From NCBI GenBank assembly GCA_021432655.1, contig MU271243.1, positions 68,780 to 125,825 of the forward strand: 57,046 nt of DNA. Reading direction: 5' to 3'. Both the position numbers and the translations under genes were made by a program. Below are positions 12,763-54,339 of the stretch, piece after piece (position 1 is the stretch's first letter; every line of letters begins with the position of its first letter). The stretch is from Atractiella rhizophila. Lineage: Eukaryota. The notes beneath the pieces are model-generated. The model ran no database searches. It worked only from the letters and a program-made list of their open reading frames with translations, and was not told the DNA's origin.

Positions 12763-12857
12763 CTTGTCCCTGAAGAGGTGTTCCATTGTTTGTATTGCTG
12801 GCTGAACAAAAGCCTTGTATTCGTAGACAGAGTAAGCTCTCTTCCGCTAGGATCACC

Positions 12858-23100: not shown

Positions 23101-25853
23101 GACCGAACCATGGCCTTTCCGTCCAACTTCCAAGTCAGGGAAAGCTTTAACGTCACGCAATGTAGCGATATACTTCAACGAGGGCTTGGTGTAGTACTGT
23201 CCGTCCTTGAGTGACGCTATGTCCACGTCCCATTCGCTTTGAACTAAACGAGCGTTGTCCTCCTCTTCCTCAGACGCCAAAGGCTGGGATGTCGTAGCAG
23301 GTAAGCGAGTAGCAGCAGATGGAGGTATAGAAGAAGTCAGAGAGTCTAAGCTTTGGCTGGTATTCAGGGATGACTCTTGGGGGTTATTGCTGAGGGAGCC
23401 GTTCGGAATCCCTTTGTGTTGAAATGGAGATAGGTAGGCAGATTTCTCCAAATTTGAGTCAAGCTGAATGGGTTTCTGCTTAGCAGATATCAAGAAGTCA
23501 AGCTGGTTTGTTGCTGGAGAACTGGCGAGGTCTCTAGAGGGAAGAGCACGCGCTATCAGCTCCTCTTTAGTCACCGTCCGGTCGATCACCAGCTTCTTCA
23601 CGCTGGACCTTGGTTGGAAGGCAAGAGGGCTGACAGTGACGTCTTCTCCCAATCCTACTCCAAATTTGAGGGGAGAGTTCGTGCCACTTCCTGGACTCCC
23701 GGGTGAGGAAGCTGGAGAACCTGATACGTCAAGAGCATTCCCAAATGACGGAGAGCTAAAGCCGCGAATTTTTTTTACGCTTGACCTCGATGGTGAAGAA
23801 GTACGAAGCATTGACATTAGAGGGGGTTGCTTCTTGGTGTTGGAGACCAGACTGGTCTGAGAAGCCGTTGAGGATTTGAAGTTAGCGAAGAGAGAGCTGT
23901 TGCCGTATGGATCTTGGTCGACAGATGCGTGAAGTGCTGGAAGTTGTTGAGTTTGTGGGAAAATGGAATTCCCTAAGGGAGTATTCGTGGAGCTTCCCAG
24001 CGAAGTTGTGTTTAAAGTGGACGCGCCGAAAGGAGAAGTGGTATTGGTAACCCCAAAGGTCGATGCACCAAACGGGTTGGTGGAAGCAGTTGTGGATGCA
24101 AAGGGGGCAGCTGGCTGAGAAGACGCCCCGAGTCCGAAGGTGTTGGTAGATGGCGCTGTACTGGTAGCGAAAGGGTCTGTGTCACAGATGAAGGGACCTG
24201 TTCGACTCGACGAGGAAATACGCTTACTCGCAGGATTGGACGATGTAGTGGTTCCAAAGCCACCAAATGGTTTCGGTGCTGTTGACGCCGCAGTACCAAA
24301 GGAACCAAAGGTAGTAGCAGGCTTTGCTGCAGTTACTGTTCAAGTATGAGCATATATTATAGGATGAAAGGTCTGACTGACATCCAAAGGTGCCGAAACC
24401 GCTTGTTGAAGGCTGAGTGGTGCTGCCGAAAGCGCTGGTTTGAGGCTGAGCCGTGGCTCCAAACGCGTTCGAAGCAGGGGCGGTTGAACCAAATGCAGAG
24501 TTCGTGGCATTCGACGTAGACGAGCCTGTGGTAGAAATGAAATCTTAGTATTTGCGCTGGAAGACATTCTCACCGAAGGCTCCTCCTCCAAATGTCGAAG
24601 CACCAAACGGCTTGGTCGCACTAGTACCTCCACCAAATGCTCCGAAACCACTTGTCGCAGGCGTGGTAGATCCAAATGTGCTCGTTCCGGTGCCACTGAA
24701 AGCGGTGGATGTGGCTGGTGCAGCCGCACCAAAAGCTGACGTTGACGCAGGTGCACCAAAAGCAGACCCTGTACTTGAAGATCCAAAACCAGTCCCCCCA
24801 CCGAAAGCTGAAGGTTGTGATGTTGACCCGAAGGCATTCGGCGTTGAAGTGCTTCCAAAGCTGTTCGTGCCTCCTGTTCCGAAAGCAGAAGGTGTGGATC
24901 CAAAAGCGGAAGTTGTTCCGCCACCGCCGAAAGATGTCGTATTGGTACTCCCAAAAGCACTGTTCGATGCAGGAGCACCAAAAGCACTTACAGTTGTACT
25001 AGTACCAAAGCCACCTGCGCCAGCGGTGGGGGTCTTCCTTCCCTGCAGATAATCCATCACTCTCAACTCTTCGTGGCTCATGTTTCGATAAGCGGGCATT
25101 GCGCTGATGCTTTGGAAGACGCTCGTCGTCGAATCGCCAGCCTGCTTTTCGGCCTGTGCAACAAATGGAGTGGTGGTGCCATTAGTAGGTATTCCTGGTG
25201 CGGCTGGACTGGACCCGAATGCGCTCGCTGCTAATGCAATCATGTAACCACCCATTAGCAAAAGGATCTACGCACGACCAAATGCACTTGTCGACGGTTG
25301 AGCACCGAAAGCGCTCGTCCCTGTCCCAGCTCCAAAGCCAGTGTTACCAGATGTTCCAAACGCGCCAGTGCCGCCACCACCACCAAAAGTCCCAGTATTA
25401 GACCCTGTAAGCATTTAGCCACCAGAAAGTAACAAGCGAAAGGAGATTATACCTCCGAATCCACCACCACCACCAAAGGCGCTAGTTCCAGCTCCTTGTC
25501 CAAAAGCACTTGTTCCCGTCCCCCCAAAGGCGCTTGTCGATGTCCCAGAGGCACCGAAGGCATTGGATGTGCTTGGCTGTCCGAATGCACCTTCCAACAA
25601 CCCTGTAAATAAAAGACTCTAGATATTGTGGCGTGCGTACCAAAGCCTGAGGACTGCTGTTGTTGTGGCTGCCCAAAAGCACTTCCAGTGTTACCAAACC
25701 CTGGAGTTGTCGTCACTACTTTATATCCCTAACATGAGACGACACACCAAATCCTGTGTTTTGCTGTTGTTGGCCAAACGCATTCGTCTGCTGATTTGAC
25801 TGTCCAAACGAGCTGGTGCTCGCTCCGAATCCAGGACGCGACTGCCCAAACAT
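20160..25853 (-). CDS. NUP98: Nup98-Nup96 precursor nucleoporin (Nup145/Nup189-like)
   Basis: N-terminal FG repeats, GLEBS motif (SISAMPAYRNMSHEELRVMDY), autoprotease domain with the HF/S site (WTFQVQHFSRYGL, ~22771), and a Nup96 domain (LDWKRVFGLHFWY, WKWAIFVLLHL). Confidence 0.93.
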
Positions 25854-25989: not shown

Positions 25990-28900
25990 ATGAGCAACTC
26001 TTCTTCTCAAATCAGCCTCAATACTCTAGCAGCTATCTCTACAGCACGCTCAGGCTCTAATTCGCCAAGTCTGAGGAGGAACTTTAGCATGGATAATGCC
26101 GCCAAGGGCAAGCATAAATTGGTGGATGTTGGATCGGAAGACGAGGATGAGGTAGACGTTTTAGACAGGAGGGATAACACCTATGAAATAGACGAGGACG
26201 AAGGCCATGAAAGCCAAGGACTGTTAGAAGGTGAGATAAAAACAGGCAGCAAGGTGGGTTTCCCTGTGCAGCTGGCTTCCCACATTTCAACTTGACTCCC
26301 AGCGCGTGCGCCAATCCACCCTGAAGGCTTCAACGTCAAATATCAAGCTACAAAGCGGAAGTTCACCGATAGATGGGTCTGGTAGCAAATCACGGACAAT
26401 TCCTCTTCCTGGCTCATCACCTCGTCATAAAACGCCACCAAGAAGGCAGCTCTTTCCTCCAAATGTTGTGAAGAACTCAAAGTACAACATTATAACATTC
26501 TTGCCTCTTGTGCTCTACGAACAGTTCAAATTCTTCTTTAATTTATACTTCTTATTAGTAGCGCTCAGCCAATTAGTGCCGGCACTTCGAATCGGTTTGT
26601 TCCCAGACTTCCTCACAATATTTTGACTCACCAGATGAGCTGCAGGATTCCTTATCACCTACATTCTTCCTCTCGCATTTGTGTTATTTGTCACCCTCTC
26701 TAAGGAAGCTGCAGACGACTACACCCGTCATGCACGAGATCGGGCCGCCAACTCCCAACTGTATACCATCCTCGATCCCCTTTCATCCTTTCTTCCCGAT
26801 CCTGCGGACACCCATAGCATTGGTAACGACGACGAGACAGACCCAGTCTCCCCGAGTCACAGGATGCATCCCCTTCCCCCCATAAAGCCCGTTCCGGCAT
26901 CCAAGCTCAAGGTTGGCGACTTGGTCATGTTGTCTCAGAATGAAAGAGTACCAGCAGACCTAGTTCTCCTCCAAACGAGCGATGAGAGCGGTACATGTTT
27001 TGTGCGGACAGATCAACTTGACGGAGAGACGGATTGGAAGCTGAAGGTGGCGACAGAGAGGACTCAGCGAATGAGGGCGGCAGAACTTCTCGCTATTAGA
27101 GGCCATTTATGGGCGGAGGCACCCAAGAAGGACATACACGATTTCAAAGGCAGCTTGATTCTTCAGGGGGAATCCACGCGGTTGGACATTCTCATTGACG
27201 AAGCCTGCTCACCTAAGAAAGCTGACGACTTGACTGTGCCACTGAATGTAGAAAACATTCTGTGGGCGAACACTGTGCTAGCAGCAGGAACGGCAATCGG
27301 CCTAATCGTCTACACCGGAAAAGAGACTAGGGCCGTTATGAACACGAGCCATCCCCAAACGAAAGTCGGCCTACTGGATCACGAAATCAATAGTCTCGCA
27401 AAGGTACGTTGTTCACAAAGTAAGGCCGACTTTTAAAAGGAAACAGATTCTATGCGCGGTTACCTTTGCGCTATCCCTTCTTCTCGTTGCTCTCAACGGC
27501 TTTCGAGGTTGGTGGTACGTTTATGTCTTCCGGTTTCTTATCCTTTTTTCGTCCATTATTCCTATTTCGTGAGTTATTTCGCCGCCTTCTTGCATGCGAT
27601 AAATGGAATGCAGACTTCGAGTCAACTTGGATATGGGGAAAACGGTTTACGCATCACAGATTCAAAGAGATCCGGAAATTCCTGAAACTATCGTCCGCAC
27701 CAGTACCTTACCGGAGGAGCTCGGAAGGATCGAATATCTTCTTAGCGACAAGACAGGCACTCTCACTCAAAATGGTGAACCTCGTTCACTTGTAAAATTC
27801 AAGGGCTGATTACGTTGATTAGAAATGGATCTCAAGAAACTCCATATGGGCACCATGAGTTATGGACATGATTCAATGGACGAAGTAACTTACCAGTTAT
27901 CCGTCGCATTCGGTGCAGGTGACCTTGGTAACACTGGTCATGGTCGCAAGACTAGCCTGACCACTGGTTTCGCCCTCGCGAGTCGCGGAAGAAGGGATAT
28001 GTCATCGAGAGTGAAAGATGTCGTGTTAGCTCTAGCTCTCTGCCATAATGCAAGTCTCATTCTCCCATTCCCTTCCCTCCTAAACTGAAGTTTGTTTTCA
28101 GGTAACTCCTGTCAAAAATGACGACGGCACGGCCATTTATCAAGCTTCATCTCCAGACGAAGTGGCAATCGTCAAATGGACAGAATCTGTCGGTCTCCGC
28201 CTAGTTCACCGCGACCGCGTTACCATCAAACTAGAGGCACCTAACAAGTCTTTGCTCTGCTTCGAAGTCCTTGAGATCTTCCCTTTCACTTCAGAATCAA
28301 AACGTATGGGCATTGTTGTCCGGGATCTCTCCAGCGGCGAAATCATGTTTTACCAGAAAGGTGCAGACGTGGTGATGGCGAAAATAGTGCAGTACAACGA
28401 TTGGCTCGAGGAAGAATGTGGAAATATGGCCCGTGAGGGTCTGCGCACGCTCGTGATGGCAAGGAAGAAGTTGAACGAGGAAACATGGCGAGAGTTTCAG
28501 CGGCAATATCAAGCGGCCAAAATATCGTTGCAAGATCGTAATGAAGTAATGGCGGAGGTTGTGAGGAGCCACTTGGAACGTGATCTAGAGCTGTTAGGAG
28601 TCACTGGCGTTGAAGATAAACTACAAGAGGATGTGAAGATGACCCTTGAGCTGTTGCGGAATGCTGGCATCAAGGTTTGGATGTTAACAGGAGACAAGAT
28701 CGAAACTGCAACATGCATCGCTATTTCTACCAAACTTGTGGCTCGAAATCAGTACATTCACCAGGTCGCGAAGCGTAAGCGCCTATTGTAGATTCAAATA
28801 CCGAGCTGATCCTATGCTAAAGTCAGATCTTCGGCCGAAGCTCGAGACATGCTCGAATTTCTGCAAACCAAACCGGACTGTTGCTTGGTCATAGATGGAG

Positions 28901-30090
28901 AATCACTTCAGCTTTGTCTCCAGCACTTCTCGACAACTTTTATATCCATCACTACGCAGCTTCCCTGCGTTGTTGCATGCCGTTGTTCGCCCACACAGAA
29001 GGCAGATATCGCTCTACTAATCCGGTCGCATACAAAGAAAAGAGTGTGCTGCATTGGCGACGGCGGGAACGATGTGTCTATGATCCAAGCCGCAGACGTG
29101 GGGATTGGAATCGTTGGAAAAGAAGGAAAACAAGCTAGCTTAGCTGCTGATTTTAGCATAAACCAGTTCAGTTTCCTGACAAAACTACTTGTTTGGCACG
29201 GAAGGAACAGCTACAAGCGAAGCGCGAAGTTGGCACAGTTTGTCATTCATGTGAGCTGTCACAGCACTGAACTCTCCCTGCTAATCGATATTCTTGTAGA
29301 GAGGGCTTATTATCAGCATCATTCAGTGCACATTCAGTATGATCTTTTATTTCAGCCCGATTGCCATGTAAGTGCCTTTACTCCGGAAAGGGTAGCACCT
29401 AACAATCCGCACTAGATACCAAGGATGGCTTATGATCTGCTTTCCCACCGTTTACACCATGGCTCCTGTCTTCAGTTTGGTCATGGACACGGATATCAAC
29501 GAGGATCTTGCTCTTCTGTATCCAGAACTATACAAGGAACTCACAAAGGTGTGTACACAACCAATCTGGGCTCGTTCTCATCTGCTTGCAGGGCCGCTCG
29601 CTATCATACAAAACATTTTTTCGTTGGACAATGGTGTCCGTTTATCAAGGAGGGCTCATCATGATTCTTTCTCTTTTATTATTCCAAACCGATTTCATCA
29701 ACATTGTCTCGATCTCTTTCACTGCTCTCATCCTCAATGAGTTGATTATGGTTGCTTTGGAGGTGAGGATGTTGTATGGATCCCGAATTCACCTCATATC
29801 CCCACAGGTCACAACGTGGCACACTTATATGGTCATTTCCGAGCTCGTGAGTATAACAATATACGCCGCCAGCATTTTCCTACTGCCAGAATATTTCGGT
29901 GAGCCTCCGCCATTCTTAACCAGGCTCATTCACTTCCTGACACCTTTTAGACTTAAACTTCGTCTTGACTGTCGATTTCGTTTGGAAGGTCGCCTTGATT
30001 GTCTCAGTCTCAGCAGCACCGCTATGGGTGTACAAACTAGCCAAAGCAAGGTGGGCTCCAGCAAGTTATACAAAGTTAAGGGATCATTAG
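25990..30090 (+). CDS. NEO1: P4-type ATPase (phospholipid flippase), Neo1/ATP9 class
   Basis: [66 protein letters not shown]. Ends [11 protein letters not shown]. Confidence 0.93.
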
Positions 30091-30199
30091 TTTCATTTGT
30101 ATTGATACCCTTTGTATTCAATGTCTCAGCTGCTGCGCTTAGTTTCCCTAGACTGTCGCAGATTTGTTCTACCATGGTCGGCTATGATGCTTAAAGCAA

Positions 30200-34957: not shown

Positions 34958-35445
34958 TGTCAGGCTTGCCACTACGCATTACCGAAATGCACCATTTGAA
35001 GTCACGTGACTCACTTTACCACATCATGGGAGCGTGTGTCTACTCGTCGCCGCTTTGCTCATGCCCACGCTGTTCGCCGATTTCCCCTTTCTCATACGAA
35101 TCGCCCCTCAGCAAACCTTACACATTTCGCCGGTCTGCACCATCCCGTTTTCGCCTCACTACCCATTCTCTCTAGTACTGCTCAGTATCTCTTATTTCTG
35201 AGTATTCCCTTTATTGCTTTCCTGAACTAGTTACCTTACATGTTTCAAGAAGCATGTGTTACAGTTTATGGCAGTGCCTTTACATATGTATATATACATC
35301 AAGAAGTAGTGGTGGTGATCTCAGAGTATTCTCTTATGTTTACCTCCACTACAGGTTAGTCTTCTCATGCCATACTATAACTTAGGTTTACCTCCACTAC
35401 AGATGCATCGCCCATTGGCGACCACACATAGTGTCAGCCCTAACA
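34958..35445 (+). repeat. gypsy 5' LTR (488 bp)
   Basis: TGTCAGG..CCCTAACA ends, a TATA-like tatatata at ~35289, and a duplicated taggtttacctccactac-like motif. Confidence 0.9.
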
Positions 35446-35488
35446 GAAGAATACTCTCCCTACCTTTCAGAACAGCAAAACTTAAAAA

Positions 35489-38400
35489 ATGTCGGAGGTT
35501 TGGGGAGATATGGAAACGCGCGAATCACCGACGAGCGAAGAACGCATCTTGCACTAGAAAGAATGTTCTAAACTCTACACCTCACAACGGAAAAACAGTT
35601 CAAAAAACTCGAACGAACACCTTATAACAAGTTTCAACCAACAAAACGCGCAAAACTCCCAGAATGCGAACGAAATTGCGCAACTGAGGTCCGACGTCCA
35701 AACACAAACGACCGAATTTTGCAATTATTGGACTCCAGACTGCCCCCTCCTAGAGACAGTGGAACCACCTCTCCGTTTTATCACGAACAGACCCAATACC
35801 TCAAACTTACTCTCCTCCATCTATACCTCAGACCGCCCAAGTAGCACCATATGCAGGTATCAAGCTTGCTCCACCTTCAATCGTCAAAGGAGTGCCTAAC
35901 ACAGCTCCGGCATTTTTACGCGAAATTTAAGTCTACATCTTTACCGTTCCAGGCTAATTCCCGACCGAAAAATCGAAAATCCTATTTACCTTCTCTTACA
36001 TGAAAGAAGGCGACGCAGAAAAATTCGCTGCTGGGATTTTGCACCAACTTGTCGAAAATCAGGAAAAAGTTTCGTGGGAACAATTTTTGTCGGAGTTCAA
36101 ATCGCGCTTCTGCAAAACAGACTACAAGCTTATTGCGCAGACGAAATTGGCTTCACTCCAGCAAAAAGGGAACCTGGAATCCTACATCATCAAGTTTGAA
36201 GAATTGGCAAATCAGGCTGACTTTGACGATGAAGCCCTTATTTTTTTCTTCAAACAAGGACTCAATCCTGCCCTACATCTCAAAGTAACCCAAGGAGAGT
36301 TCCTAAAATCGCTAGAAGACTGGAAAGAAAAATCTCAGCGAATTGATGCAGAAGAATCTGCTCATTCAACCTTCTTTCGAAACATCCCATCGGCGAAAGA
36401 CGGACCCCAGAATACGTTTTCTGCCAAAAGAGACAGCTCAAGATCATCAAAGCACAGAGAGAGCAGAACACCCGTATCGTATCGACCGAGCGCCGCTTTG
36501 TCAACGGTCGCCGATCTGTCACCAAACACCGCTACACAAGCACATAGAGCCAAGGACCCCGATGACATGGAAGTCGATGCGACAAAATCTAGACCTCCCC
36601 GTTGCAGACGATGCCAAAAGATAGGACACCGGGAAAGAGAATGTAGAACGACCATGAACAAGGAACAATATCTCCGAGCCCAAAGAGAATATTTTGATTC
36701 AAAAATGATGCACCAAGAGCGACAATTTGGACAATTTGTCGACCAGTCGCAGTGTTACCCAGTTGAAAGATCTAGAGGAGGATTTTTAGGACGGCGGTGG
36801 GTGAAAGAAGTGTCCCCGTCGCCGACTTGCAATTCATTTACGTCACCTAAAATCACTTCCAACAAAACGCCGCGCAGCACAGTATTCCCCTCTTCTGAAC
36901 AAGACTCCCCATTCCCGAAATTGCGTTTTTCTTCTTGGAGACAAAGATACGCAGAAGTCGCAAAAATGTACGACAAAGTCCATTTACGTTCGACAACAGC
37001 ATCCCTTGTCAGTTCGAAGACGAAGCTCAGAACTACATTCCATCATCCACATTCCCATCGCCGACACGCCACATCGGCGCTCGTTGACAGCGGCGCAACC
37101 ACCTCTTTTATTTCTCCAAAAGTTGTTTCCACATACAACCTACCCGTCACTCAACTCCCTTCCCCAGTGCCCGTTTACAATATCAATGGATCCCTCAATC
37201 AAGGGGGTTCCATCCATTCTGTCGCTTATTTTACCCATTTCGATCGCCACCCATCACGAAGTTTGGCAATTCGCGGTGGCAGAGTTGGGGACTGTCGACA
37301 TGATTCTAGGCCATGACTGGCTAAGACACCACAACCCAGAGATCAACTAGGACTCAGGGAAAGTTGAATTCTCTCGTTGCCCTACCAGTTGCAATGCAGA
37401 TGACGTATCTATCACTCGCGAACACTTCCCGTCATCGTCTACCTCAATATGAGCCGCTATGACAAAATCACAGAAACTGGCAAAAGACACGGCGGCGATG
37501 AGACCAAAAAATGCCGTTGAAATACCAACGCAAATCGCCGATTTTGCGGACATTTTTGACGACGAAAAATTCAAAACTTCACTTCCTCCTCAACGACCTT
37601 GGGATCACGCGATCAACCTCATACCGGAAACCCGACCATATGCGGGTCCTGTCTACCCCTTGAAAAGAGACGAACAAGCGGCGCTCGACCAATTCATTGA
37701 CGCCCAACTAAGCGCCGGTCGTATACGTCCTAGCACAGGTGAACATGGAGCTTCTGTTTTTTTCACGCACAAAAAAGACTCCTCCGAACTTCGTCCCCTT
37801 TTCGATTATCAAAAGCTGAACGAAGCCACAGTCAAAGACAAGACCCCACTCCCCATTCAAGCTGACCTCTTTTCCATGGTTTCAGGTAAGAAGTTTTTCA
37901 GCAAGATTGATCTGAGGAAAGGATTCAACAACGTTCGTATCAAAGAAGGGGACGAACACAAAGCAGCGTTTCGCACAAATTGCGGACTTTTCGAACCATT
38001 GGTGATGTATTTCGGTCTCTGCAACTCACCAGCGACTTTTCAGGCTTTCCTGAACTCTATTTTCTTTGCGATGATCGCTGCTGCGTTCATCTTCATATAC
38101 ATCGACGATATCCTGATTGCGACAGAGACAGAAGAAGAACACTGGCAACGCGTTCGACAAGTTTGTCAAATTTTGCGCGAAAATGGGCTTTATGTTAACT
38201 TACAGAAACGTGTTTGGTGTCAAAGCGAAGTAGAGTATCTGGGATTGATCATAACCAGCAAAGGGATTGAACCGGATCCAGTAAAGGTTGCAGGAGTGAT
38301 GGATTGGCCAGAACCGAAAAACATGAAGGAGGTCCAAATGTTCCTCGGCTTCGCTAATTTCTATCGCTGCTTTTGCGATAGATTCAGTCACATCGCACGA

Positions 38401-40590
38401 CCTTTATATGAACTGACCAAAAAGAAAGTTTCCTGGATCTGGGGGGTAGATGAACAACGTTCGTTCGCCGCTTTGAAACAGCTCATGACTTCGGCACCCG
38501 TTTTGGCACATCCCGAACAAATAGGACTTTTTTGCTCGAAGTCGACGCGTCAAATTTTGCGACAGGCACCGTTTGTCACAAATGAAACAGGATGGAAAGT
38601 TTCACCCGATCGGTTTCGTGTCAAAATCGCTAGATGCTGCCCAGAGGAACTACGACACCTACAACAAAGAAATGCTCGTGATTATGCGCGGACTGCAAGA
38701 ATGGAGACACCTTCTCCAAGGTACTGATGAGCCATTTCTGATCTTGACCGATCACAAAAATCTTGAGTATTTCAGAATGCCACAAAAGTTGAATCGTCGA
38801 CAGGCGCGCTGGACCACAGAACTCGCATCCTTCAACTTCACTCTTTTACACCGTCCTGGACGAAACTCCGCAAAACCAGATGTGTTCAGTCGGCGACCGG
38901 ATCACAAACCGGCAACTTGCGACAATTTCGATGTAGTGTTACTCCCAGATCGTTTTTTCAACACGGATCGTATCACCATCAACGCGACTGGGAGCACGGT
39001 TGCGCTCACAAGACACATGTCGGAGTTGAGTATACTGGAACGTGTGAAAAGGGTGCCTGAACGGGAAGAACAAGTAGTCAAGGCCTTGAGAGAGATCCTA
39101 GACGAACCAGCCGATGCAATTCGCCGACGGGAGTGGCAAGAAGTTGATGGTGCTGTCTATTTTCACGGAAAACTCTACATTCCCCGCGATGATGAAATTC
39201 GCCGCTCAATTTTGCAAGACCTACATGATTCGCAAATCTCCGGTCATCCAGGCGTAAAATCGACGATGGCTCTCGTAAAAAGGTACTACTGGTGGCCAGG
39301 TTTGGCACATTACGTTTGCCGCTATGTCGGCGCCTGTCACACTTGCCACAGAACGAAAAACTTTCCTTCCCCACCTGTCGGGTTTTTGCAACCAATTGAC
39401 ATTCCCACACGTCGCTGGCAAATTGTCAGCATGGACTTAGTTGGACCACTCCCAGAATCTGGGGGGTTCGACACGATTTTCGTCATAGTTGACAGACTCT
39501 CAAAACGTACCCATCTCATCCCACCCATTCGACGATGGATGCAGAAGGCCTTGTAAGACTTTTTCGCGATCACGTATGGAAGATACATGGACTTTTCGAT
39601 GTCGCAATTTTCGATCGAGGTAAAGAGTTTGTGTCCAAATTCACATCCGTGCTTTTTCGCCTATTAGGTATCAAAGGCTCACCACTGACAGCCTATCATC
39701 CACAAAGTGATGGCCAGACTGAACATATGAACCAAGAAGTTGAACAATATTTGCACATTTTCTGCAATCACCTTCAAGATAATTGGGTAGAAGGACTTCC
39801 CAACGCAGAATTTGCGCTCAACAATCGCGTCAGTTCGGTGACGGGCGTAACTCCATTTTCGCCTGATTGCGGTCAACATCCCCGCATGGCTTTTGAACCC
39901 ATCTCCGACGAGGACGTTCCTGCGGCGGCACAATTCGTCGAAAAGATGCAAATCGCCGACCGGGAAGCACAAGCGGCACTCAGGCAAGCAGCAGGAGCAA
40001 GGAGCAGATCTCATGGCAAAACATTATGACAGAAAACGCGCACTGGCATCCGAATATCAAGTCGGCGATTTCGTCTGGTTGAGCGTGAAAACATCAAATT
40101 GACGAGACCTGTCAAAAAGTTGGACGACAAATGGCATGGTCCCTTTCGCGTTTTGCAAGTTTTGGGTCCCCTCAACCTTAAACTTGAGTTCCCATCCTCA
40201 TGGAAGATACGTCCAGTGTTCCATGAGGGCCTAATACGAAAAGTCAACAAAGACGACATCCCTGGCAGAGTCCAGTTGCCCAAACCACCTCCGGAATTGG
40301 TGAATGGAATTGAAGAATGGGAAGTGGAAGAAATTGTTGATGGAAAATGGTTCGGTACCCGAAATAGAGTTTTCAAATATGGTGTCCGGTATAAAGGGTA
40401 TTCACCATCTGAGGACGAGTGGATCAACATCACAGATCTAGAAAACTCACAGGATGCCATAAAAGACTATCACACTGCACACCCCCTTGCAGTTCGTCCT
40501 GATTTCACACCGAACTCCACAAAAAATCACCCAAATGCGCGTCCTCGTAACCTTCGACGAAAATGCGCTGGAGGGTCTTCCTCACTTTAA
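35489..40590 (+). pseudogene. gypsy gag-pol: capsid, CCHC, protease, RT, RNase H, integrase, chromodomain (frameshifted)
   Basis: CRRCQKIGHREREC, ALVDSGAT, FSKIDLRKGFNNVRI, YIDDILI, TDHKNLEYF, GHPG..CHTC, HPQSDGQTE, and EWEVEEIVD..YKGYSPSEDEWI (chromodomain). Confidence 0.95.
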
Positions 40591-41040
40591 GGGGCCAACA
40601 CCCCTATATGCCTTGCCAGTTGAAATCCTAGTCGTTGATACTTAGGTCAATGCAAGGCGCCGACGTGCTCCTCACCGGGCAGGTCGGCGACTTGGTCGTT
40701 GGTGAGTCCATTCGTCGCCTGCCAAAGACGAATACTCATTGCGTTCTCGCACCATCACCAATGTCGCACTTACAAAAATTGCCCTCAATTGAGAGGTCCC
40801 CTCCCCCTCACTTTAAGAGGTCCTACTCCTCTACACGCCTCGCTGGGTGAATCCCTAGTCGCATTGTTGAACATAGGTCTAGGCAAGGCGCCAGTCTGTT
40901 CCTCAACGGACAGATCGGCGACAGGGTTGTCGGTGAGTTACTCACCCCATTTTCCCAAACGGTTGCTTACTGCACCAAAACAACACCGGTCAAACTTCAA
41001 AATCCCTCAATTGCAAGGTATACAACGACTTCCCCTCATC
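40575..41040 (+). repeat. Two diverged ~227-bp tandem units downstream of pol
   Basis: ctcactttaag..cctagtcg..gcaaggcgcc..tcggcgac..ggtgagt occurs at ~40581 and ~40807. Confidence 0.75.
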
Positions 41041-41399
41041 CTACACTTTGTTTCGGTTTTGATGATTATTATTTGCTATTTTTGCTTTCACCTTTTGTTT
41101 CCCCATCCTTGTTCGCTCGACAACACATTCTCCCACAAAGAAGACGGACCGGCGACGAGCATACACATCGCCGACACGTTATACTGCGCGTTGTGTCCAC
41201 GAGCGCGTGGCCCAGGCCTGTTTGGTTGTGAGCTCCAAAATAAGCTTGGGTAGCTAGTGGGAGGAACGCCTGAGGGTCCTCCCCTAGACAGGGGAGTGTG
41301 AGTCCTGCATCACCCACTCTACCATTGTTCTCCCCACTCACTACGATCCCTTTTGCCACTACAACACATTTACATCTGTCGCCGCCTAGCAATTCACCG

Positions 41400-44300
41400 C
41401 TAATACGGAGACGCAAAACAGAGACCGAAATCACCACTCTGGACAGACTCCTCACTATCGCTACTGCTGGAAGAAGAAACGGAATATGCATCATAATTGG
41501 AATTATCATAGGCCTCTTGGGCCAACGAAGGGTTTAAGTCGCCCAATTGAAACTCAATTTCGCCGATACGACACATTTTCTGCAGCTGGCTACAGATCAG
41601 GTGCCCTATGATGCCTAAACAACATCTAGATGATAGTCAGATGGATCGCCGAAAAACGGATAAACTCACCCTACCGGTCATATCGGCGATCACACCTTCC
41701 ACCACAGAATCCTCGCTAGCCCCATCCTCCGCAGTACGATCGTCCTGCCTCCTCTTATACAACTCCATTTGCAACTCGGTGGCCTTAAGAGCGTCTGCCG
41801 CCGCGTGTGCATTCAACCTGGCGGCCGCGAGCATGGTTTGTGCGAAGTCCAGGCTGAACGCTTCAGAGTACAACTGAGTGGCGCTCAGCATTGATTGTGA
41901 GGGAGAATCCTCGTTGCCGTCCGATATGTTCTCGTAGTTGCTCTCGACCAAAGCCGAAGGACTTTTTTTCCCGTCGCCGACACGTTTAGGATGGAATGTA
42001 GTCGACATTACGACTAACATCGAGAGCTCTCGCAGATACCCCAAAGGCAAAACCTCGCGCCTTTTTCGCGAACTGTGACAGCGCGAGCAGACGCGACCGA
42101 ACGCAGTTGCGACATGCCCAGCAGATAAGTTGCACACCGAGAGTCGTTGTCGGCCTTGGCCTTCTTTTTTGCCGCTTTGACGGGCGCCGCACGAATCTTT
42201 CCAGTATAGTTGCTACATTGCTGTGTCCCGATGATGATGCGCCTTCATTGCAGGTGGGTTCTTTCGAGTAGTTTCGTTAGTATTGTACAACAGCTTCATG
42301 TCCGGATTGAGCCATCAGCAGTATACCCTATTACAGTGGACTGCCCCAGTCAGACAGTTTGCAATTGCAACCGATATAATCTTCACCGATTTGGGCAGTA
42401 TCTTGTCTAAATGAAATCAAGATGCCTTAGCTGCTTCAGTTCTTTTTTGTCTACTCAAGTAGCAATGTCACCACCTGTCCCTTGCAGCGTGAGAGTGAAA
42501 GCACGCACTGTTCCAGCTGCTTCTTTCTCTCTTCCATCTCCCTCCTTTCCTGCTCAGCCACTGCGTCACTTTTCAGTTTGCGCTGTTTCTTCCTTTGTGC
42601 AACCAAGTTTTGAACTTCTTCGACGTCTTTGAGTGTGAGCGGAAGAGAAGATGCTGGGCGGAGGATCATGGTCTTATTGGCAGAAGTTACGTGCGGTATC
42701 CAGCAGAGACCTTCACACTCTCTAATGGAGTGTCCAATTATTCTTGCTCAAGTAATTGTTCTGATAACGGAAACGCGGGAACTACTTTAGCCGCTTGCGC
42801 CAAAGTCGAAGTTGAGGCTCTCTGAAAACAGGGTTTGGTAAGAAATTCAGTCAGTTCCGTCAGTCTGCCACAAGTGACTGAATGTTCGACAGTCCGATGT
42901 CAGCAGTTTTGCAGTTCCGTTTCGGTGTCGGTGCCTGTATCAACGCCCAGCTTAGATTGTACTGCTTGTTCTAGCGCACAAGTACGAGCAGTGGGCATTT
43001 GGAAGTCAGAAGGTATGGTCCCACTGTCACATTTGTGTATTTGAGAGTTTGTGCAACAGAAATACACGGCTGACAACAAATGTGTGTTGCGCTGGAAACC
43101 GCTAGATTGGTGGGGCAATCTTATGTATATTATTGCCTCGGCATATCCTTCCCTCCCACCATATTCATGCTTTCCATAAATCAGTCAAGCTATGGGAGAC
43201 AATAGATCGCATGACTTACAACGAAACGATGTGCTCGCCTTATAGCATTACGTTGCCGACTTTCATTTTCCAATGAGCAAACCACTGTTCCGTCTGCAAG
43301 ATGCATTTTGGCCGACTTCTCTGATTGAGAATGTATCTTAGCAATGTCTTCACTTTCATATTCAGTTCCCATAACGGACATAAGGTAAGACTGAGGTGTG
43401 GTCAAGATGCTGCTTTCAAGAGCAGAATCAAACGTCCTAGACCGTGATTTGGAGGAAAAAGTGTTTGTTCTTTCCGTCGGTTTAGGAGAGGTGTCAATGT
43501 GAGGAATGTAGAGCTTGAGAATATTCAGTTGTTTGCGCCGGATCAGGTTATTTGCTATTTCGCCATATGGCAGTCTTCGTGAACCCAGCTTGTCTTTCTC
43601 AGTTCCTAGATTTCGCTCCAAAGGAAGCTGCGTGAAATTCATTGGGCTTCCTAGAATCCTGCTCGAGGGAACAATATGCAGGAGCTGATGCAGGCTCATT
43701 GGAACACAGCAAACCAGAGCAGGGATGTTCGGCATGTAGAGCTCCTCAAATCCAGTGCAAAAGCTCCTCATGAAGGAAGCTGCACTTTGAAGTTGTGGCA
43801 AAGAGGCGGCCTGGATGTTTGTGATGATTTTGACTGCAGGGACAAAGTTCGTCCAATGTTGTTTGAGCTCGATGTGGAAGCCAACGTCCAGCAATATGGG
43901 AATAAAATACCAATGCACCATCCAGGCCACTCGTATATTGAATATCACTTATTGCAGAACTTGTCTAGATTGTGAATGTGGTTTGAGAAGAGGCAGGACC
44001 TCACACCTCTTCCGAGAACTGTGACAACGCCAACAGACCCGACCGAACACAGTTGCGACATGCCCAGCAGATAAGTTGCACACCTGAGAGTCGTTGTCGG
44101 CCTTGGCCTTCTTTTTTGCCGCTTTGACGGGCGCCGCACGAATCTTTCCAGTATAGTTGCTACATTGCTGTGTCCCGATGCTTGCCAACGTGGGAAGCAG
44201 ATTTGCACGAGGAGTCGTGATGACCAATTCGAGTTCCAACTCGCCCAGATTGATGTTCGCCGCAGCGTGAGAATAGGCCTCTTGAGTACCAGGCCAGAAG

Positions 44301-45069
44301 TACCGATATTTCGCCGCATCTAATTCCTTGTCGCTGATTCGCACTGTCCCGTCACGCACTACAAATTCGGCGACTGGCACACCAGCGAATGGATTTCGGT
44401 CCCCCAACGCTGCAGGCAAAAGGAAAGTAGTCGCGGTCACTAGATGATCAGACAGCACCCTCACAACCCCAACCTCAGATCCTTTCACCGCTGCACTCGA
44501 TTTCTGAGCGCGCAAATTCTCCTCCCCCCTCGACGCTTACTTTCCAGCGCCGCCCGTTGTCGTTCCTCCTCCTCCTTTGCCAAACGCTTTTTTGTGTCAA
44601 ACAGGAAAAGCTCTCGTTCCTTTCTTCGCAAAACAATATCACCGTTGCTGATTCAGAAGGCTGAAACCAAATTTCGCAGCTTCTTCCTCGACAAGCACCG
44701 CTTGTTCGACCCAGACTCGAAGTTCATCCCACAATGCCTGCATGTCTTCCACAGACATCCGCAGCAGGAACGACAAAACTGCCCATCACCAAACCCTTTC
44801 GCAGGCTCATAAACCATTCGCACCTTCCCACCGGCGATGGGTTATCACACACACCCAACCACAATATACAAAACAGGAAATCTCACCTCTGCTTGTACCT
44901 CATCACAAAATTTGATATACAAAGGATAACACCTTCTCCTACATTCCAACACATCGGCGAATCACCCAAAGTTCACCTCTTTCGCCTTCTCCACGTCCCA
45001 GTAAACGGTGCTCTCCTTCCTATCTTTGTTCGCCAGAACGAAGTCGAAGAGTTGCGTGTCAGTCGACAT
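41400..45069 (-). pseudogene. Antisense spliced gene of unknown function with a Cys motif, inside the gypsy element and interrupted
   Basis: ORFs 43949-44515 and 41637-42137 are contiguous via a duplicated segment (CNL..GRVCSRCHSSRKR). A phase-0 GTGAGT..CAG intron at 41669-41580 joins a last exon ending TAG at 41400. The 5' part has stops and frameshifts. Confidence 0.55.
43190..43948 (-). pseudogene. CACTA/CMC-EnSpm-type transposase C-terminal fragment
   Basis: FEELY..SLHQLLHIV..ILGSPMNFTQLPLERNLG matches the H-x-L-x-H...G-P...ER-x-x-G signature of CACTA transposases. Confidence 0.7.
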
Positions 45070-45194
45070 TTTTGCAAGAAAAGAAGAGAAGGAGATGGTG
45101 GAAGACGTGGGAAAATTTTTCGTCCAAGCTAGCCGCAAACCTTAACCTTAAATTTCCGTGACTCACGCATACTAGTCAGAAATTTGGGGGGTGT

Positions 45195-45636
45195 TGTCAG
45201 GCTTGCCCCTACGCATTACCAAAATGCACCATCCAAGTCATGTGACTCACTTTGCCACGTCATGGGATCATGTGCCTACCCATCACCGCTTTGCTCATAC
45301 CCGTGCTGTCCGCCGCTTTACCTTTTCTCACATGAATCGCCGCTCTGCAAACCTTATACATTTCGCCGTTCTGCATCGTCCCCATTTTCGCCTTATCATC
45401 CCTTTTCACTAGTACTGCTCAGTGTATCTTATTTCCGAGTATTCCCTTTATTGCTTCCTTACATGTTTCAAGAAACATACATTACAGTTTATGGCACTGC
45501 CTTTACATATGTATATATACATCGAGATGTAGCCTCCACTACAGGTTAGTCTTCTCATGCCATACTATTCACTTAGGTTTACCTCCACTACGTACGCATC
45601 ACCTGTTGGCGACCGCACATAGTGTTTGCCGTAACA
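45195..45636 (+). repeat. gypsy LTR (3' LTR, with ~33-bp internal deletion)
   Basis: Homologous to 34958-35445 and preceded by a G-tract. Confidence 0.9.
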
Positions 45637-45676
45637 TGCCACCCTCATGGAAGATACATTCAGTCGTCCATCTGAG

Positions 45677-46036
45677 TGTTAGGGCTGACACTATGTGCGG
45701 TTGCCGACGGGCGATGCGTCTGTAGTGGAGATAAACCTAAGAGCATGATATGACATAAAGACTAACCTGTAGTGGAGATAAACCTAAGAGAATACTCTAA
45801 GGTCACCTCTACTACTCTCCGATCTATATACAAGCGGAATAACACTGCCACAGAGTGTAGAGGAGAGCAGATGAAACATGTAAGAGAACTAAAAGGGGAA
45901 GTGACAGTGGGATTATGCGGAGTTAACATGAGGAGAATAGACACAAATGGGCTAAGTGGTGATGTGGGCACAAATGGGCGACAGGAGACGCAATCCGGCG
46001 AACGAGCGCCGATTTGCGTAAGATGCAAACCTGACA
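45677..46036 (-). repeat. gypsy solo LTR (same subfamily as 9004-9440), internally deleted
   Basis: The reverse complement begins TGTCAGGTTTGCATCTTAC and ends CCCTAACA. No TSD seen. Confidence 0.88.
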
Positions 46037-46835
46037 CATTAATTATGATATGGCTGAATTAGGGCAAGATGATGTGATAAATTGCTGACCTTTAGTTAAA
46101 GGAAATACAAGACCTCAGCGTAGGGAATGGAAACAGCAGGGGGTCTGGCACTTTCAGAAGGAGGGAACATAAGGCATTTGTATCTGATCTGGCGGCTGAT
46201 GTGCACTTCGTCAGAGGGCCGCTGGAGCTCTTCCACCTGGTACAGACAATCTCATTCTACGGCAACTACAATCTTGCCCATTTGGTAAAGCGACCATTCC
46301 AAGTATCTGGTGGATGCCAGAAACCTGGTCCAATTCTACCACTAAACCCGAGTTCCCACTTCTACCTTTTTCCTTGCAACCTTGACAAATGTTTTCCTCG
46401 GTTCCTGGTGATTTATAGGTGATGGAGTTGCTGTGAAATCTATTCAGAGGGAAACTCTTCATTTTCAAGGGATAGAAATATGCATAAAGGAAAATTTGTT
46501 TTAAAATACCGAAAGTCCAAGTGAAACAAGTTCCTAATAACCAAAATATCAGATCACTGGGATTGTAGTTTACACAGCAAATCTAATGACCATGAACCTG
46601 TTGATACAGCACCCACTACCTATGTACACCATTTTTTCTTGTTTACGCTTCAGTCAATCACAAAAGTGGTAGTTAATATGTAAGAGGTCAGGTCGGTCAG
46701 GGTAGGTGTAAAAATCGCGAATAGAGGAGATGATAGCAGGTTCAAAAGTTCAAGGCCTTGGGGGCCAAGATTACAGTTGATGACGAGAAAAAACGACCAT
46801 CTCTTCCCTTCCACGACAAGTTTTGGAGCGGCGAT

Positions 46836-49578
46836 ATGACAGACGTACAATCCGTCTACGATACGCCTCATGTACCCGCAGCTTCCGAGGCCTCTGCGGC
46901 TACAGAGCCTGTGGAAGAGAGCCCCAAGAAAGTGTACGGCGCCACCCCTAAGTTGGCAACGCCGACCGCCGAATTAGACGACATAATTGACAAAGAATCA
47001 CCTCCAGTAAGGGTGGAAGGGCTCAAGCCTAAAGTGACGAAACGATTCGACTTTTCCGAGAAGGTGAAGAAATACGTGCCGCACGAATGGGAGAACGAGA
47101 AGGCGTTGATAAATTTCTTCCAGAGGCTATATGCGGCAAGTGGCTTCCTTATTTCTATGTGAATTCGTTGACAAAATGCGTGCAGGAGCTTCCGGAAGAT
47201 GATGGAGGCCCTGTGGCTATGAGGTACCTCGTTCTCGATAAGGAAGTACAAGGTGAAAACATGACTGATCGCACTCCTGTGAAACTGGATGCCGTTCTCA
47301 CACCGAAATTTTTGGACCCACTTACCAAGGATACCTTTACCTACGCCGAACTGGGAGCTTCGTTAGAGCTGAAAAATAAACTGAAAAGCGATGAAAGAAA
47401 GGCGCGCCGGACATTAGCCCGAGGAGGAATGGCTGGTCTGTCTGCTCGACCTCGCAATTTTACTTGGGGGATATCCATCGGCAATCACATGTCGCAGAAT
47501 GCGTTGACGAAGTCTTTTTCTTGGGTCTTTTGCACGCGTGCCGGACGATTCGAATCCGAACCGTACGACTTGGAACCGAACTTTGAAGACTTAGTTCAGA
47601 CTCTTGCATCTTTTGCTACGGCCGACGAGTCTCAACTTGGTTTTCTTGACGCTTTTGACCATCCTCCTAAGGCAAGATTTTCATGGGAGCAACCTGATGT
47701 GCCCAACCTGCCCAGTATCAGTCTACCGTCAAACCCCACAGGCACTCGGTCTTCTTCTCGTTTACGCGCCATTGCTGTCTCCGTCAGCTCGGCTTCTGCA
47801 GTATCTTCGCCCGCTGTAACGCACGGTTTTAAGCTTGATGAGATTGGAAAACTTAGGCATTGGAAGAAGGTGGGAAGTGATTTTATTCCCAATGTGGTAC
47901 ACAAAAAACTTTTTGCTGCCAACAAGATTGCGGGAAAAGGAACCCAAGTGTGGCTCGCTAAATTGCTAGGGGAAGCTGACGGTCATTTGGGAACCGTGAA
48001 CTTCCTCTGGCTACCCGATCCGTTCCTGGAGCGTATGAAGGCACACATCCAACTATTTGACTGTTGGCGCCAAGAAAGTTTGACCAGACAAAAGGAACAT
48101 CCTATCGAGAATTGGGATTGGCTGGATGACGCGCCGTTTTCTATTTTCTATCGCGACGATTATTCCGTTGCTCAGCTAGCTAGCGAGTACGCAACCTGGA
48201 CGGCATCACCCAGCCCTTTTGTCACGCAAGATCGTAAACCTGTCCTAGTTTTTCACAAGACGACGGGTCAACCACTTCGGGCAGGTCCTACGGCTCGTGT
48301 CGTTTTAAAATCACTGATTTCGGTTGTGCAACGTTAGTACTTAGTGTTGTTCTATTGGAAACTAAATTTGGTCACAGAGATTGCGACGATGTCATTAAAA
48401 TCCTTTGTCCATCGGGATATCTCGTATGACAACATGTATTCTCGCAACGATCAGAGCCAGCCTAGCGGTTTTGCTAAAGATTACGAACAAGCAAAAGTCC
48501 GAGGGAAAACCTATGCATTTGGCAATAAAAGTGCGGGAGAATTAACAGTGCGTTCTTTGCTCTCGTTATCTCTTTACTCATTGGTTGGTAGGGCACATTT
48601 CCATTCCTTTCGCGTTGCGTTCTCACAGCGTACCTTGTGAAACATGCCACGCACCCGCCCCCTGATCCAAAAAATATATATCAGAACTATGCTCAGAAGA
48701 CGTTGGACGATTTGGAATCAGTTTTTTACTGTGGCGTCTATTTCTTCTGCCATTTTGTCCCGAAGGATAAGAATAATCCCTTGGGAGAACTACGAACTCG
48801 TTTATGGCCAGGCTCGGTCCCCTCGCTTGCAATGAGCTCCACGTCCAAATCGAACTTAATTACACCAGCATCAGAAGTGTCAGGACAGCTAACATCAGGG
48901 ACCAGCGGCTCATCAGCGTCGAGGAAGCGTCATGCCCGCGATTCCAAGCAGCGACAAGAAACCATTTTTGACTTACCGGTTTTGCAATATGAAACACCCT
49001 ACCCTCTTGCCCAATGGTTCTCAGCGGGGCCGGCGAGCTTGGACAAGTTAGCGCTCTTGGGAAGAACCAAATTTTTGCCCGGAGAAGAAAGCGATTTCGA
49101 GACGCTGAAAAGGGAGATGACCGATTGCCAACATCGAGAAGAGGAATTAAAGAAGGAGTGTGATATATTGACTAAGGCAGGGAAGTATCGCGAGTTAGCG
49201 GAGCAACAACGTGAGCTCGTGCAACTTCTGGAGAGAAAAGCGACTCTGGAAGGGATGCAGGCAGGGATGCAGGCGAGGATGCAGGCGGTGATGCAGGCGA
49301 GGCTGGAAGCGAAAAGAACCTTCAGAAACACGATCGGTCAACGTCTCGGCAAAGATCACAATTGGACGTGGGACAGCGACACTATCGATGATATCCTATG
49401 GAAGCTTTCGGAACCCATCAGTTTTCCTGCGAATGAAATGGATGATGGATGGGACTCTGTTCTGAGTGGAGAAGATCATGCCAGGCAGGTCATGGACATC
49501 GCCTCAGAGATGGTAGCAGCATTGGAAGCTGGTTTAGATTCTTTGGATGAACTGTGCAAAGCCTCACAGGGGAGTTGA
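46836..49578 (+). CDS. Fungal-type protein kinase (FunK1/Pkinase_fungal); probable frameshift near 47100, possibly a pseudogene
   Basis: IAGKGTQVW, FVHRDISYDN, KDYE, ELT/GTFPFLS and DDLESVFYC motifs joined by introns at ~48332-48377 and ~48548-48590. Confidence 0.78.
49252..49303 (+). repeat. 12-bp coding tandem repeat (GMQA/RMQA/VMQA)
   Basis: Four ggatgcaggc-type units in the kinase C-terminal coiled region. Confidence 0.75.
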
Positions 49579-52346: not shown

Positions 52347-52599
52347 TTGCGATAATTTTGACGCAGTGCTACTCCCTGAGCATTTTTCAACGCAGGTCAT
52401 ATTACCATTAACACAACTGGGAGCACAGTTGCGCTCACATGGCAAATGTCAGAGTTGAGCATACTGAAACACGTGAAAAGATGCCTGAACAGGAAGAACA
52501 AGTAATGAAGGCCCTGAGAGAGATCCTGGACAAACCAGTTGATTCAATTTGCCAACAAGAATGGCAGGAAGTCGATGATGCTGTCTATTTTTGTGGAAA
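52347..52599 (+). pseudogene. gypsy RNase H-integrase linker fragment
   Basis: Aligns by eye to ~38917-39171 (PEQEEQVMKALREILD..EWQEVDDAVYF). Confidence 0.85.
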
Positions 52600-54339
52600 A
52601 TTTTCTCCTTGGGCTCGGAGATATTGCTCCTTGTTCATAGTCGTTCTACATTCTCTTTCCCGATGTCCTATCTTTTGGCATCGTCTGCAACGGGGAGGTC
52701 TAGATTTTGTCGCATCGACTTCCATGTCATCGGGGTCCTTGGCTCTATGTGCTTGTGTAGCGGTGTTTGGTGACAGATCGGCGACCGTTGACAAAGCGGC
52801 GCTCGGTCGATACGATACGGGTGTTCTGCTCTCTCTGTGCTTTGATGATCTTGAGCCGTCTCTCTTGGCAGAAAACGTATTTTGGGATCCATCTTTCGCC
52901 GATAGGATGTTTTGAAAGAAGGTTGAATGAGCAGATTCTTCAGCGTCAATTCGTCGAGATTTTTCTTTCCAGTCTTCCAGCGATTTTGGGAACTCTCCTT
53001 GGGTTACCTTGAGATGTAGGGCAGGATTGAGTCCTCTTTTGAAGAAAAAAATGAGGGCTTCATCATCAAAGTCAGCTTGATTTGCCAATTCTTCAAACTT
53101 GATGATGTAGGTTTCTAGGTTACCCTTTTGCTGGAGGGAAGATTATTTTTGTCTGTGCAATGAGCTTGTGGTCTGTCTTGCAGAAACGCGCTCTGAACTC
53201 CGATAAAAATTGTTCCCACGAAATTCGTTCTTCGTTTTCGACAAGTTGGCGCAAAATCCCAGCGACGAATTTTTCCGCATCTCCTTCTTTCATGTAAGAA
53301 AGGGTAAATAGGATTTTCGATTTTTTCGGTCGGGAATTGGCCTGGAGCGGTAGAGGTGTAGACGTAAATTTCGCGTAAAAATGTCGGAGCTGTGTTCGGC
53401 GCTCCTTTGAAGATTGAAGGTGGAGCGAGCTTGATACCTGCATATGGTGCTACTTGGGCAGTCTGGGATATAGATGGAGGAGAGTAAGTTTGAGGTATTG
53501 GGTCTGTTCGCGATAAGAAAGGAGAAGTGGTTCCACTGTCTCTAGGAGGGGGCAGTCTGGAGTCTAATAATTGCAAAATTCGGTCGTTGGTATTTTGGAC
53601 GTCGGACCTCAGTTGCGCAATTTCGTTCGCATTCTGGGAGGTTTGCGCATTTTGTTGGTTGAAGCTTGTTATGAGGTCTTGTTCGAGTTTTTTGAATTGC
53701 TTTTCAGTTGTGAGGTGTAGAGTTTGGAACATCCTTTCTAAGTGCTGGATGCGTTCTTCGCTCGTCGGCGGTTCGCATGTTTCCATATCTCCCCAAACCT
53801 CCGACATTTTTTAAGTTTGGTTTCAAAAATAAGGAGAGAGTATTCTTCTGTTAGGGCTTCCACTATGTGCGGTCGCCGATGGGCGATGTGTCTGTAGTGG
53901 AGGTAAACCTAAGAGGATAGTATAGCATGAGAAGACTAACCTGTAGTGGAGGTAAACCTAAGAGAATACTCTGAGGTCACCACCACTACATCTCAATGTA
54001 TATATACATATGCAAAGGCACTGCCATAAACTGTAACATACATTTCTTGAAACATGTAAGATAGCTAGATCAGGAAAGCAATAAAGGGAATACTCGGAAA
54101 TAAGACATACTGAGCAGTACAAGTGAGAAAGGACAATAAAAGCAATAATGGAGACCGTGCGGACCGGCGAAATGTTTAAGGTTTGCTGAGCGGCGATTCA
54201 TGTGAGATGGGGGAAGGCGGCGGTCAGCGCGAACGTGCGCAAAGCGGCGACGTGTAGGCACGTGTTCCTACGACGTAGTAAAGTAGGTCACGTGACATCA
54301 AATGGTGCATTTCGGTAATGCGTAGGGGCAAGCCTGACA
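52600..54339 (-). mobile_element. 3'-truncated gypsy copy: LTR (53849-54339) and gag
   Basis: LTR homologous to 34958-35445. gag ORFs 53115-53807 and 52585-53088 are nearly identical to 35489-36690. Confidence 0.92.

Follow-up and report, generated by a model that had tools for sequence, protein, structure and literature searches.

A damaged chromovirus copy from Atractiella rhizophila with a probable antisense accessory gene before its 3' LTR

We analysed a stretch of 57,046 nt from Atractiella rhizophila (GenBank assembly GCA_021432655.1, contig MU271243.1, positions 68,780 to 125,825 of the forward strand). This whole stretch is called the window in the following, and all coordinates count from its first letter. 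The window contains a Ty3/gypsy chromovirus on the plus strand, which is probably a damaged old copy from a sub-lineage equipped with an antisense accessory gene of about 1.7 kb. This gene would belong to the aORF-3R kind, i.e. the antisense extra open reading frames (ORFs) found between pol and the 3' long terminal repeat (LTR). It lies between a run resembling a polypurine tract (PPT) at 41288-41298 and a second PPT followed by the 3' LTR, and in this copy it is dead.

Antisense gene of the window copy

A preliminary description had placed a minus-strand gene in about 4.6 kb between the chromodomain stop and the PPT plus 3' LTR, with a start some 125 bp from the LTR boundary and a Cys pattern in a Lys/Arg-rich context. 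All three statements were borne out. The pol stop is the TAA at 40588-40590, and 4,604 bp extend from there to the start of the 3' LTR at 45195. The antisense ATG at 45069 is located 126 nt from the LTR edge and opens MSTDTQLFDFVLANKDRKESTVYWDVEKAKEVNFG ('MSTDTQLFDF...'), a start that is common to five predicted public proteins and to the public model of the window locus. The pattern C-S-N-Y...C...C-x2-C-x6-C is present in a Lys-rich stretch at about 44164-43997. The parts of the gene and the DNA that separates them are arranged as follows.

44181-45069, minus strand: N-terminal part of the antisense gene, beginning with ATG 45069, as aligned by ungapped tblastn of the predicted proteins P0005, P0153 and P0152
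44824-44886, minus strand: sole credible intron (63 nt, GTGAGA...GGGAAG), containing TGA and TAA in frame
43991-44180, minus strand: repeat copy A, consisting of the Lys-rich stretch and the Cys cluster CSNY..C..CWRC-x6-C
43043-43989, minus strand: fragment of a Transposase_21/tnp2 (CACTA-type) gene, without the catalytic domain
42234-43042, minus strand: remaining inserted filler, with P0127 and P0154 as the only homologs found
42045-42233, minus strand: repeat copy B of the Lys-rich/Cys-cluster segment, in which 1 nt is deleted and one Cys is replaced by Arg
41400-42044, minus strand: C-terminal part of the antisense gene, contiguous with the Cys cluster in the paralog P0152

The N-terminal part, the Cys cluster and the C-terminal part are all present in the window copy, but they are separated and damaged. 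A premature TGA occurs at codon 36 (44964-44962), where the paralogs carry R or H, and the reading frame shifts three times in comparison with P0005 and P0153, near 44780, 44663-44649 and 44530-44524. At the beginning of the Cys cluster a Cys-to-Tyr exchange distinguishes CSNY in the window from CSNC in the best paralog, which has six Cys. A 190-nt direct repeat (43991-44180 / 42045-42233) brackets 1.76 kb of foreign DNA (42234-43990), and this insertion and the repeat amount to 1.95 kb in total. Past repeat copy B the C-terminal part continues to about 41400. The window copy of the gene is thus a pseudogene.

Canonical introns had also been ascribed to the gene. One antisense intron is credible, since the models P0005 and P0153, which represent other loci, skip exactly the stretch 44886-44824. 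A second intron is possible near 41681-41618, with approximate boundaries. One intact intron-containing gene, however, was not found, and the gaps of the public model P0154 by-pass lesions, as described below.

Relatives, past selection and linkage to the element

An exhaustive HMMER search of 1.84 billion representative proteins was performed with the read-through of 44536-43193 (one TAA read as X) as the query, which covers only the middle part of the antisense-gene protein. It yielded 186 matches at E<=0.001, the best 150 of which were listed. P0002, P0005 and P0006 (77-87% identical) make up three of these 150 and cover the first half of the query only; the remaining 147 of the 150 fall on its second half. 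Word-index searches added P0152 (515 aa), P0153 (569 aa) and P0154 (579 aa), which are listed by NCBI under Atractiella rhizophila as hypothetical proteins. No match was obtained in a 'near'-length search with the C-terminal part of the gene, and a pattern scan of metagenomes with P0152 returned 92 matches, none of which was a relative. Among the matches listed, close relatives of the antisense-gene protein were found only as P0002, P0005, P0006 and P0152-P0154, representing at least six loci. Within the searches made no similar gene was seen outside the element, as is characteristic of the aORF-3R kind. In P0152 the N-terminal part, the Cys cluster (CSNC-x24-C-x14-CSRC-x6-C) and the C-terminal part (LGYLRELSMLVV...LQMEL) are contiguous, without the transposase piece.

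Repeat copies A and B are identical over about 130 nt apart from one gap, followed by 14 differences in 62 nt. Because of this identity mosaic, we suggest a diverged paralog as the source of the end of copy A. In the Cys segment 14 of 96 nt differ between the copies, 10 of them synonymously and 4 non-synonymously (pN/pS 0.135, Fisher p 9e-5). In the frame of the cargo gene 3 amino acids are changed, whereas the other two frames would have 10 and 8 changes (simulation P 0.00035). This pattern indicates that the Cys cluster is likely to have been coding once, under purifying selection in the past.

The gene is part of a cargo module within the element, which is organized as follows.

34958-35445, plus strand: 5' LTR, 488 nt, with TG..CA ends
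35958-40590, plus strand: gag-pol of the Ty3/gypsy chromovirus, five ORFs in three frames
40591-41298, plus strand: 3' internal region common to cargo-less members, terminating in the PPT-like ACAGGGGAGTG (41288-41298)
41299-45178, minus strand: cargo module, absent from the cargo-less form, containing the antisense gene
45179-45194, plus strand: PPT adjoining the 3' LTR, GAAATTTGGGGGGTGT
45195-45636, plus strand: 3' LTR, 442 nt, beginning with TGTCAGG
45677-46036, minus strand: inverted LTR of a related sub-family, 360 nt, 40 nt past the element

Pfam matches in gag-pol comprise Retrotrans_gag, aspartyl protease, RVT_1, RT_RNaseH, Integrase_H2C2, SH3_Tf2-1 and Chromo, and the order gag, protease, reverse transcriptase, RNase H and integrase is that of a Ty3/gypsy chromovirus. 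The chromodomain (PF00385) is located at the C-terminus of the integrase (E 4.3e-8, 33.4 bits, cut-off 25.1). The ORF at 39493-40029, which represents the integrase core, has no Pfam match at E<=0.001 and is preceded by Integrase_H2C2 and followed by SH3_Tf2-1. The two LTRs share 87.0% identity over 440 aligned nt, in addition to indels of 14 and 33 nt. A target-site duplication was not found, the 5-bp flanks of the element being GCGAC and TGCCA. Since the LTRs are only 87.0% alike and the flanks differ, the window copy is very old, unless it arose by recombination between two members of the family.

With its location between pol and the 3' LTR, antisense to gag-pol, the gene has the position of an aORF-3R gene. 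The connection to an LTR recurs at a second locus: P0152 matches the antisense LTR with its residues 1-38, namely the 3' LTR at 45385-45242 and the LTR copy at 54148-54291 (E 6.8e-4 and 4.5e-5), and therefore the P0152 locus also adjoins an LTR in the same orientation. In addition, contigs of two source-like runs, X1 and X2, were mapped to the window. Diverged contigs (87% alike) cover 44285-45205 (X1 record 7) and 44730-45205 (X2 record 16), and both run through the PPT and 11 nt into the LTR. A further X2 contig leads from 41298 to 41428 with 31 other letters between, and therefore another copy joins the 3' common region to the cargo.

The preliminary description had regarded the gene as possibly a standing accessory gene and had asked whether it always lies between pol and the PPT. 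The first view is upheld insofar as an antisense gene family exists in at least six loci, is linked to an LTR in at least one other locus and carries a trace of past selection, but the window copy is a pseudogene and cargo-less members occur. Regarding the second point, the 87%-alike contigs reach the same PPT/LTR edge, whereas in other members the LTR follows directly after 41298. Likewise, for the occurrence in most copies that is expected of the aORF-3R kind, at least six loci encode the gene and one paralog abuts an LTR, yet a cargo-less LTR junction is seen. Apparently, the antisense gene is carried by a sub-lineage and is not fixed in the family. The summed depth of the X1 contigs is about 5,000-16,000 in pol, about 1,900-3,500 in parts of the cargo and about 150-500 at 42340-43173, values that are no basis for ranking parts but, as a hint, point to fewer repeats of the cargo than of pol and to a unique portion within the filler. 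The inverted LTR at 45677-46036 exceeds every other part of the stretch covered in summed contig depth, and by a wide margin.

Several observations weigh against an accessory gene of this kind. None of the six predicted proteins is clean and full-length (P0152 is devoid of two segments, P0153 contains frame-shifted stretches, and P0005, P0002 and P0006 are partial), and none of them is recognizable as a living copy. The selection test comprises 32 codons only. Transcription and splicing of the antisense gene are predicted from sequence only, and no family, fold or solved structure supports a function for its protein. The contigs that end at 45205 fail the rule of 31 letters on each side and were not counted as bridging the edge between cargo and LTR. 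Moreover, X1 and X2 have one contig each in which 41298 is followed by 46036, read on the other strand (60 and 54 letters, respectively, on the shorter side), and 46036 is the TGTCAGG start of the inverted LTR. Therefore, some members have no cargo and reach the LTR about 700 nt downstream of pol, and the antisense gene is consequently dispensable for the family. Finally, with LTRs that are 87% alike and no target-site duplication, insertion as a single unit is not demonstrable, and the element may be a recombinant of two elements.

Possible function and competing explanations

The gene of this family would encode an orphan protein of about 530 aa. Its predicted layout consists of a helical or coiled N-terminal half, a Lys-rich run resembling a nuclear localization signal (NLS), six Cys (C-x2-C-x24-C-x14-C-x2-C-x6-C) and an acidic tail. 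Pfam gave nothing for P0152 and noise only for P0153, P0005 and the Cys segment, and a sequence search of the PDB returned no match at E<=10. Structure prediction, which had been proposed as a check, did not lead to a fold: the AlphaFold2 model of P0152 (7 rows) has a mean pLDDT of 34.4. In the Atlas no usable feature match was obtained for residues 47-435; residues 270-350 gave sub-bar leads only, namely a cluster of which 28% carries DUF3716, and clusters with Zn_clus at TM 0.40-0.49.

Zn2Cys6 proteins have the consensus C-x2-C-x6-C-x5-12-C-x2-C-x6-8-C. The spacing of the six Cys given above is different, and no match to Zn_clus (PF00172) was found even at E<=10. The C-x2-C-x6-C formed by the final three Cys, with R-K-R ahead of the third one, resembles the first half of a Zn2Cys6 cluster. 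Zn binding and a regulatory or anti-silencing role, which the preliminary description had considered, are putative properties of the protein.

Transcription could start from the 126-nt spacer or from the antisense 3' LTR, as in gene23 of Grande or HBZ of human T-cell leukaemia virus (HTLV). Because the gene lies opposite to the sense genomic RNA, its introns would not be removed from that RNA and would be copied along with the element, as expected from the general logic of retrotransposition. We propose tentatively that a protein expressed in this manner is a nuclear, nucleic-acid-binding modulator of the expression or transposition of its own element; this is possible and not more. A more specific version is unlikely, namely that the sub-lineage maintains the intron-bearing antisense gene under purifying selection and that its product, a six-Cys, NLS-bearing nuclear protein with a possibly permuted Zn2Cys6-like cluster, is expressed from the 3'-LTR side and controls transcription, silencing or integration of the element.

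The damage to the window copy may be explained by a break just after the Cys cluster, which would have been filled with the 3' third of tnp2 and other DNA. The gene would restart 190 nt upstream of the break, and the arrangement resembles a product of templated repair or of a template switch. Within the fragment at 43043-43989 Pfam reports DUF4218 (E 8.1e-5, 22.9 bits), under the cut-off of 27. Transposase_21 was detected in 9 of the 11 distant HMMER matches that were scanned, in 8 of them above the cut-off. By tblastn the fragment aligns to residues of about 600-850 in relatives of roughly 950 aa, i.e. to their C-terminal third; the aligned relatives are fungal proteins of 700-1100 aa carrying Transposase_21. 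The catalytic domain of Transposase_21 is absent from the fragment, and junction reading and a repeat search revealed neither terminal inverted repeats nor a target duplication at the junctions 43990/43991 and 42233/42234. Compared with Transposase_21/tnp2 of CACTA (En/Spm-type) transposons, the window stretch corresponds to the C-terminal region. It comprises about a third of the gene and is filler inside the broken cargo gene, in contrast to a CACTA element. An origin of the Cys cluster from the transposase gene, which phmmer alignments beginning at query residue 150 and inspection by eye had suggested, was rejected by a profile of 26 transposase relatives, in which homology starts at about 43992, excludes the Cys cluster and does not match P0152.

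An alternative to the accessory gene, which we regard as doubtful, is that the 3.9-kb module is a passive hitch-hiker, i.e. a transduced host or orphan gene or another mobile piece that was trapped once by the PPT, is present in few copies and plays no role. The selection signal would then predate the capture or come from a free-living paralog. The cargo-less junction at 41298 and the damage in every predicted copy fit this explanation, as do the PPT-like runs at 41288-41298 and 45179-45194, since such flanks are expected from capture by read-through or recombination. Transduction of this type is described for low-copy aORFs in the available text of PMC7264820. The same text, however, presents transduced genes as mostly sense-oriented; furthermore, no donor-like homolog was found outside the small family, and the gene occurs in at least six loci.

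That the gene is not cargo at all, but a gene of the host or of another transposable element (TE) enclosed between a chromovirus truncated at its 3' end (left) and an LTR that does not belong to it (right), is quite improbable. The 87% identity of the two element LTRs is compatible with this idea, since they are no closer to each other than either is to the LTR at 54339-53849 (85.9% and 84.2%), and so are the missing target-site duplication and the TE-rich surroundings with an inverted LTR 40 nt away. Nevertheless, P0152, from another locus, has a first exon that matches the antisense LTR, the diverged contigs reach the same PPT/LTR edge, and the X2 contig is evidence of another copy in which 41298 and 41428 are linked.

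The ten exons of P0154 match the window without a single deviation between 45069 and 42334, and P0154 is therefore the public gene model of the window locus. It joins the N-terminal part of the cargo gene to the transposase fragment, and its nine gaps, two of which are only 19 nt long, leave out a stop as well as the frame changes and, from the Cys cluster, its second half. In our reading most of its introns are by-passes of lesions and not evidence of splicing, and P0154 is a chimera in which a dead retroelement gene is fused to a transposase fragment. It is hardly credible that the public model is correct and P0154 is one spliced gene, a domesticated fusion of the orphan N-terminal part with the C-terminal domain of a transposase: it maps exactly, its gaps are GT..AG-like, and short contigs of a run X3, guessed to be RNA, are identical to 42293-42443 and 42657-42822, but two of the gaps measure 19 nt, the TGA and three frame changes that it skips are read straight through by the paralogs, the X3 contigs are unspliced across two P0154 introns, and the second half-gene downstream (42233-41400) is left unexplained. 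X3 provided 6 short contigs and carries another organism label; it was not used as expression evidence.

Neighbourhood and comparison with known antisense genes

The DNA of the window is eukaryotic and rich in TEs. The inverted LTR at 45677-46036 (minus strand, TGTCAGGTTTGC...CCCTAACA) has a counterpart in an LTR fragment at 9200-9445, to which it is 94.5% alike. The gypsy family is represented by another, truncated copy at 52347-54339 (minus strand), in which an LTR and gag are followed by an internally deleted piece of pol. It is about 90% alike to 34958-36695, is without the 3' part and is uninformative on the cargo. Remains of Ty1/copia elements lie within 798-7801, i.e. a copia-type gag with Pol_BBD at 2429-3976 (minus strand), SH3_retrovirus at 798-1994 (minus strand) and RVT_2 at 6848-7801 (plus strand). 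Host genes around the elements are a Rad54-like SNF2 gene (16943-17944), Nup98-96 (20822-24339, minus strand), a P-type ATPase (26639-30194) and a fungal-type protein kinase (47033-48337).

Within the chromovirus itself, a direct repeat of about 130 nt (40580-40707 / 40806-40938, 75% alike) starts in the last pol codons (CCTCACTTTAAG) and recurs 226 nt downstream. The 3' region common to cargo-less copies contains a sense ORF of 204 aa (40639-41253, plus strand) without a Pfam match. The 10-nt sequence AGAATACTCT directly behind the 5' LTR (35448-35457) is complementary to AGAGTATTCT inside the LTR (35323-35332), which fits Tf1-like self-priming. TGACTCA, a motif of the Gcn4/AP-1 type, occurs once per long LTR (35007 and 45243), and the 126-nt spacer that precedes the antisense ATG contains a further one (45159). 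An Rfam scan of 40000-46200 gave no match.

A literature search on Atractiella rhizophila and transposable elements found no papers. Grande (gene23), RIRE2, Retand, PvRetro13 and Boty (brtn) are on record as carriers of an antisense extra ORF between pol and the 3' LTR (available text of PMC7264820, PMC11963269, PMC8365987 and PMC4227169), and antisense extra ORFs of LTR retrotransposons are widespread and of unknown function according to the text of PMC7264820. Since such genes are known from plants and Boty (PMC7264820, available text), the proposal of an undescribed system had to be abandoned. Maize Grande gene23, rice RIRE2, Silene Retand and Phaseolus PvRetro13 resemble the window element in having a long region between pol and the 3' LTR with an antisense gene for an orphan protein. 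For these, too, a nuclear or regulatory role and an own or LTR-antisense promoter are proposed (PMC7264820 and PMC11963269, available text). Unlike the plant Tat/Retand lineages, the window element is a fungal (Pucciniomycotina) chromovirus, and no sequence relation was detected. Also unlike the plant aORF-3R genes, the gene of the window family is present in part of the family only and has at least one short intron, which is predicted; the word 'intron' does not occur in the available text of PMC7264820 and PMC11963269.

The closest description in a fungus concerned Boty / BcGypsy1 of Botrytis cinerea with its antisense gene brtn (Zhao et al. 2011, as cited in the available text of PMC7264820, PMC8365987 and PMC4227169). 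Like the window element, Boty is a fungal Ty3/gypsy element with a chromodomain and an extra antisense gene after pol (PMC4227169, available text). In contrast to Boty, which belongs to the Ascomycota, the window copy is degenerate and comes from another phylum, and the likeness to brtn is one of description.

HBZ of HTLV-1 is a retroviral antisense gene near the 3' LTR, which has an antisense promoter in or beside the LTR and encodes a nuclear regulatory bZIP protein. The window gene is likewise antisense and near the 3' LTR, but it is non-retroviral, known from sequence alone and not assigned to a fold. HBZ is also mentioned in the available text of PMC7264820 and PMC11963269.

Altogether, the window gene is a lineage-specific case of the known aORF-3R kind, to which the intron, the selection signal and the dimorphism of cargo-less and cargo-bearing members add something. 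As a warning for annotation, the public gene model at this locus is chimeric and combines a dead retroelement gene with part of a transposase gene. A fungal case in which selection can be measured and an intron is present would be a tractable system and would illustrate cleanly why antisense introns survive retrotransposition. If the sub-lineage indeed maintained the gene for the control of its own element, which we consider unlikely, it would be a fungal counterpart of the retroviral antisense regulators, and the function of aORF-3R genes would become testable in a culturable fungus.

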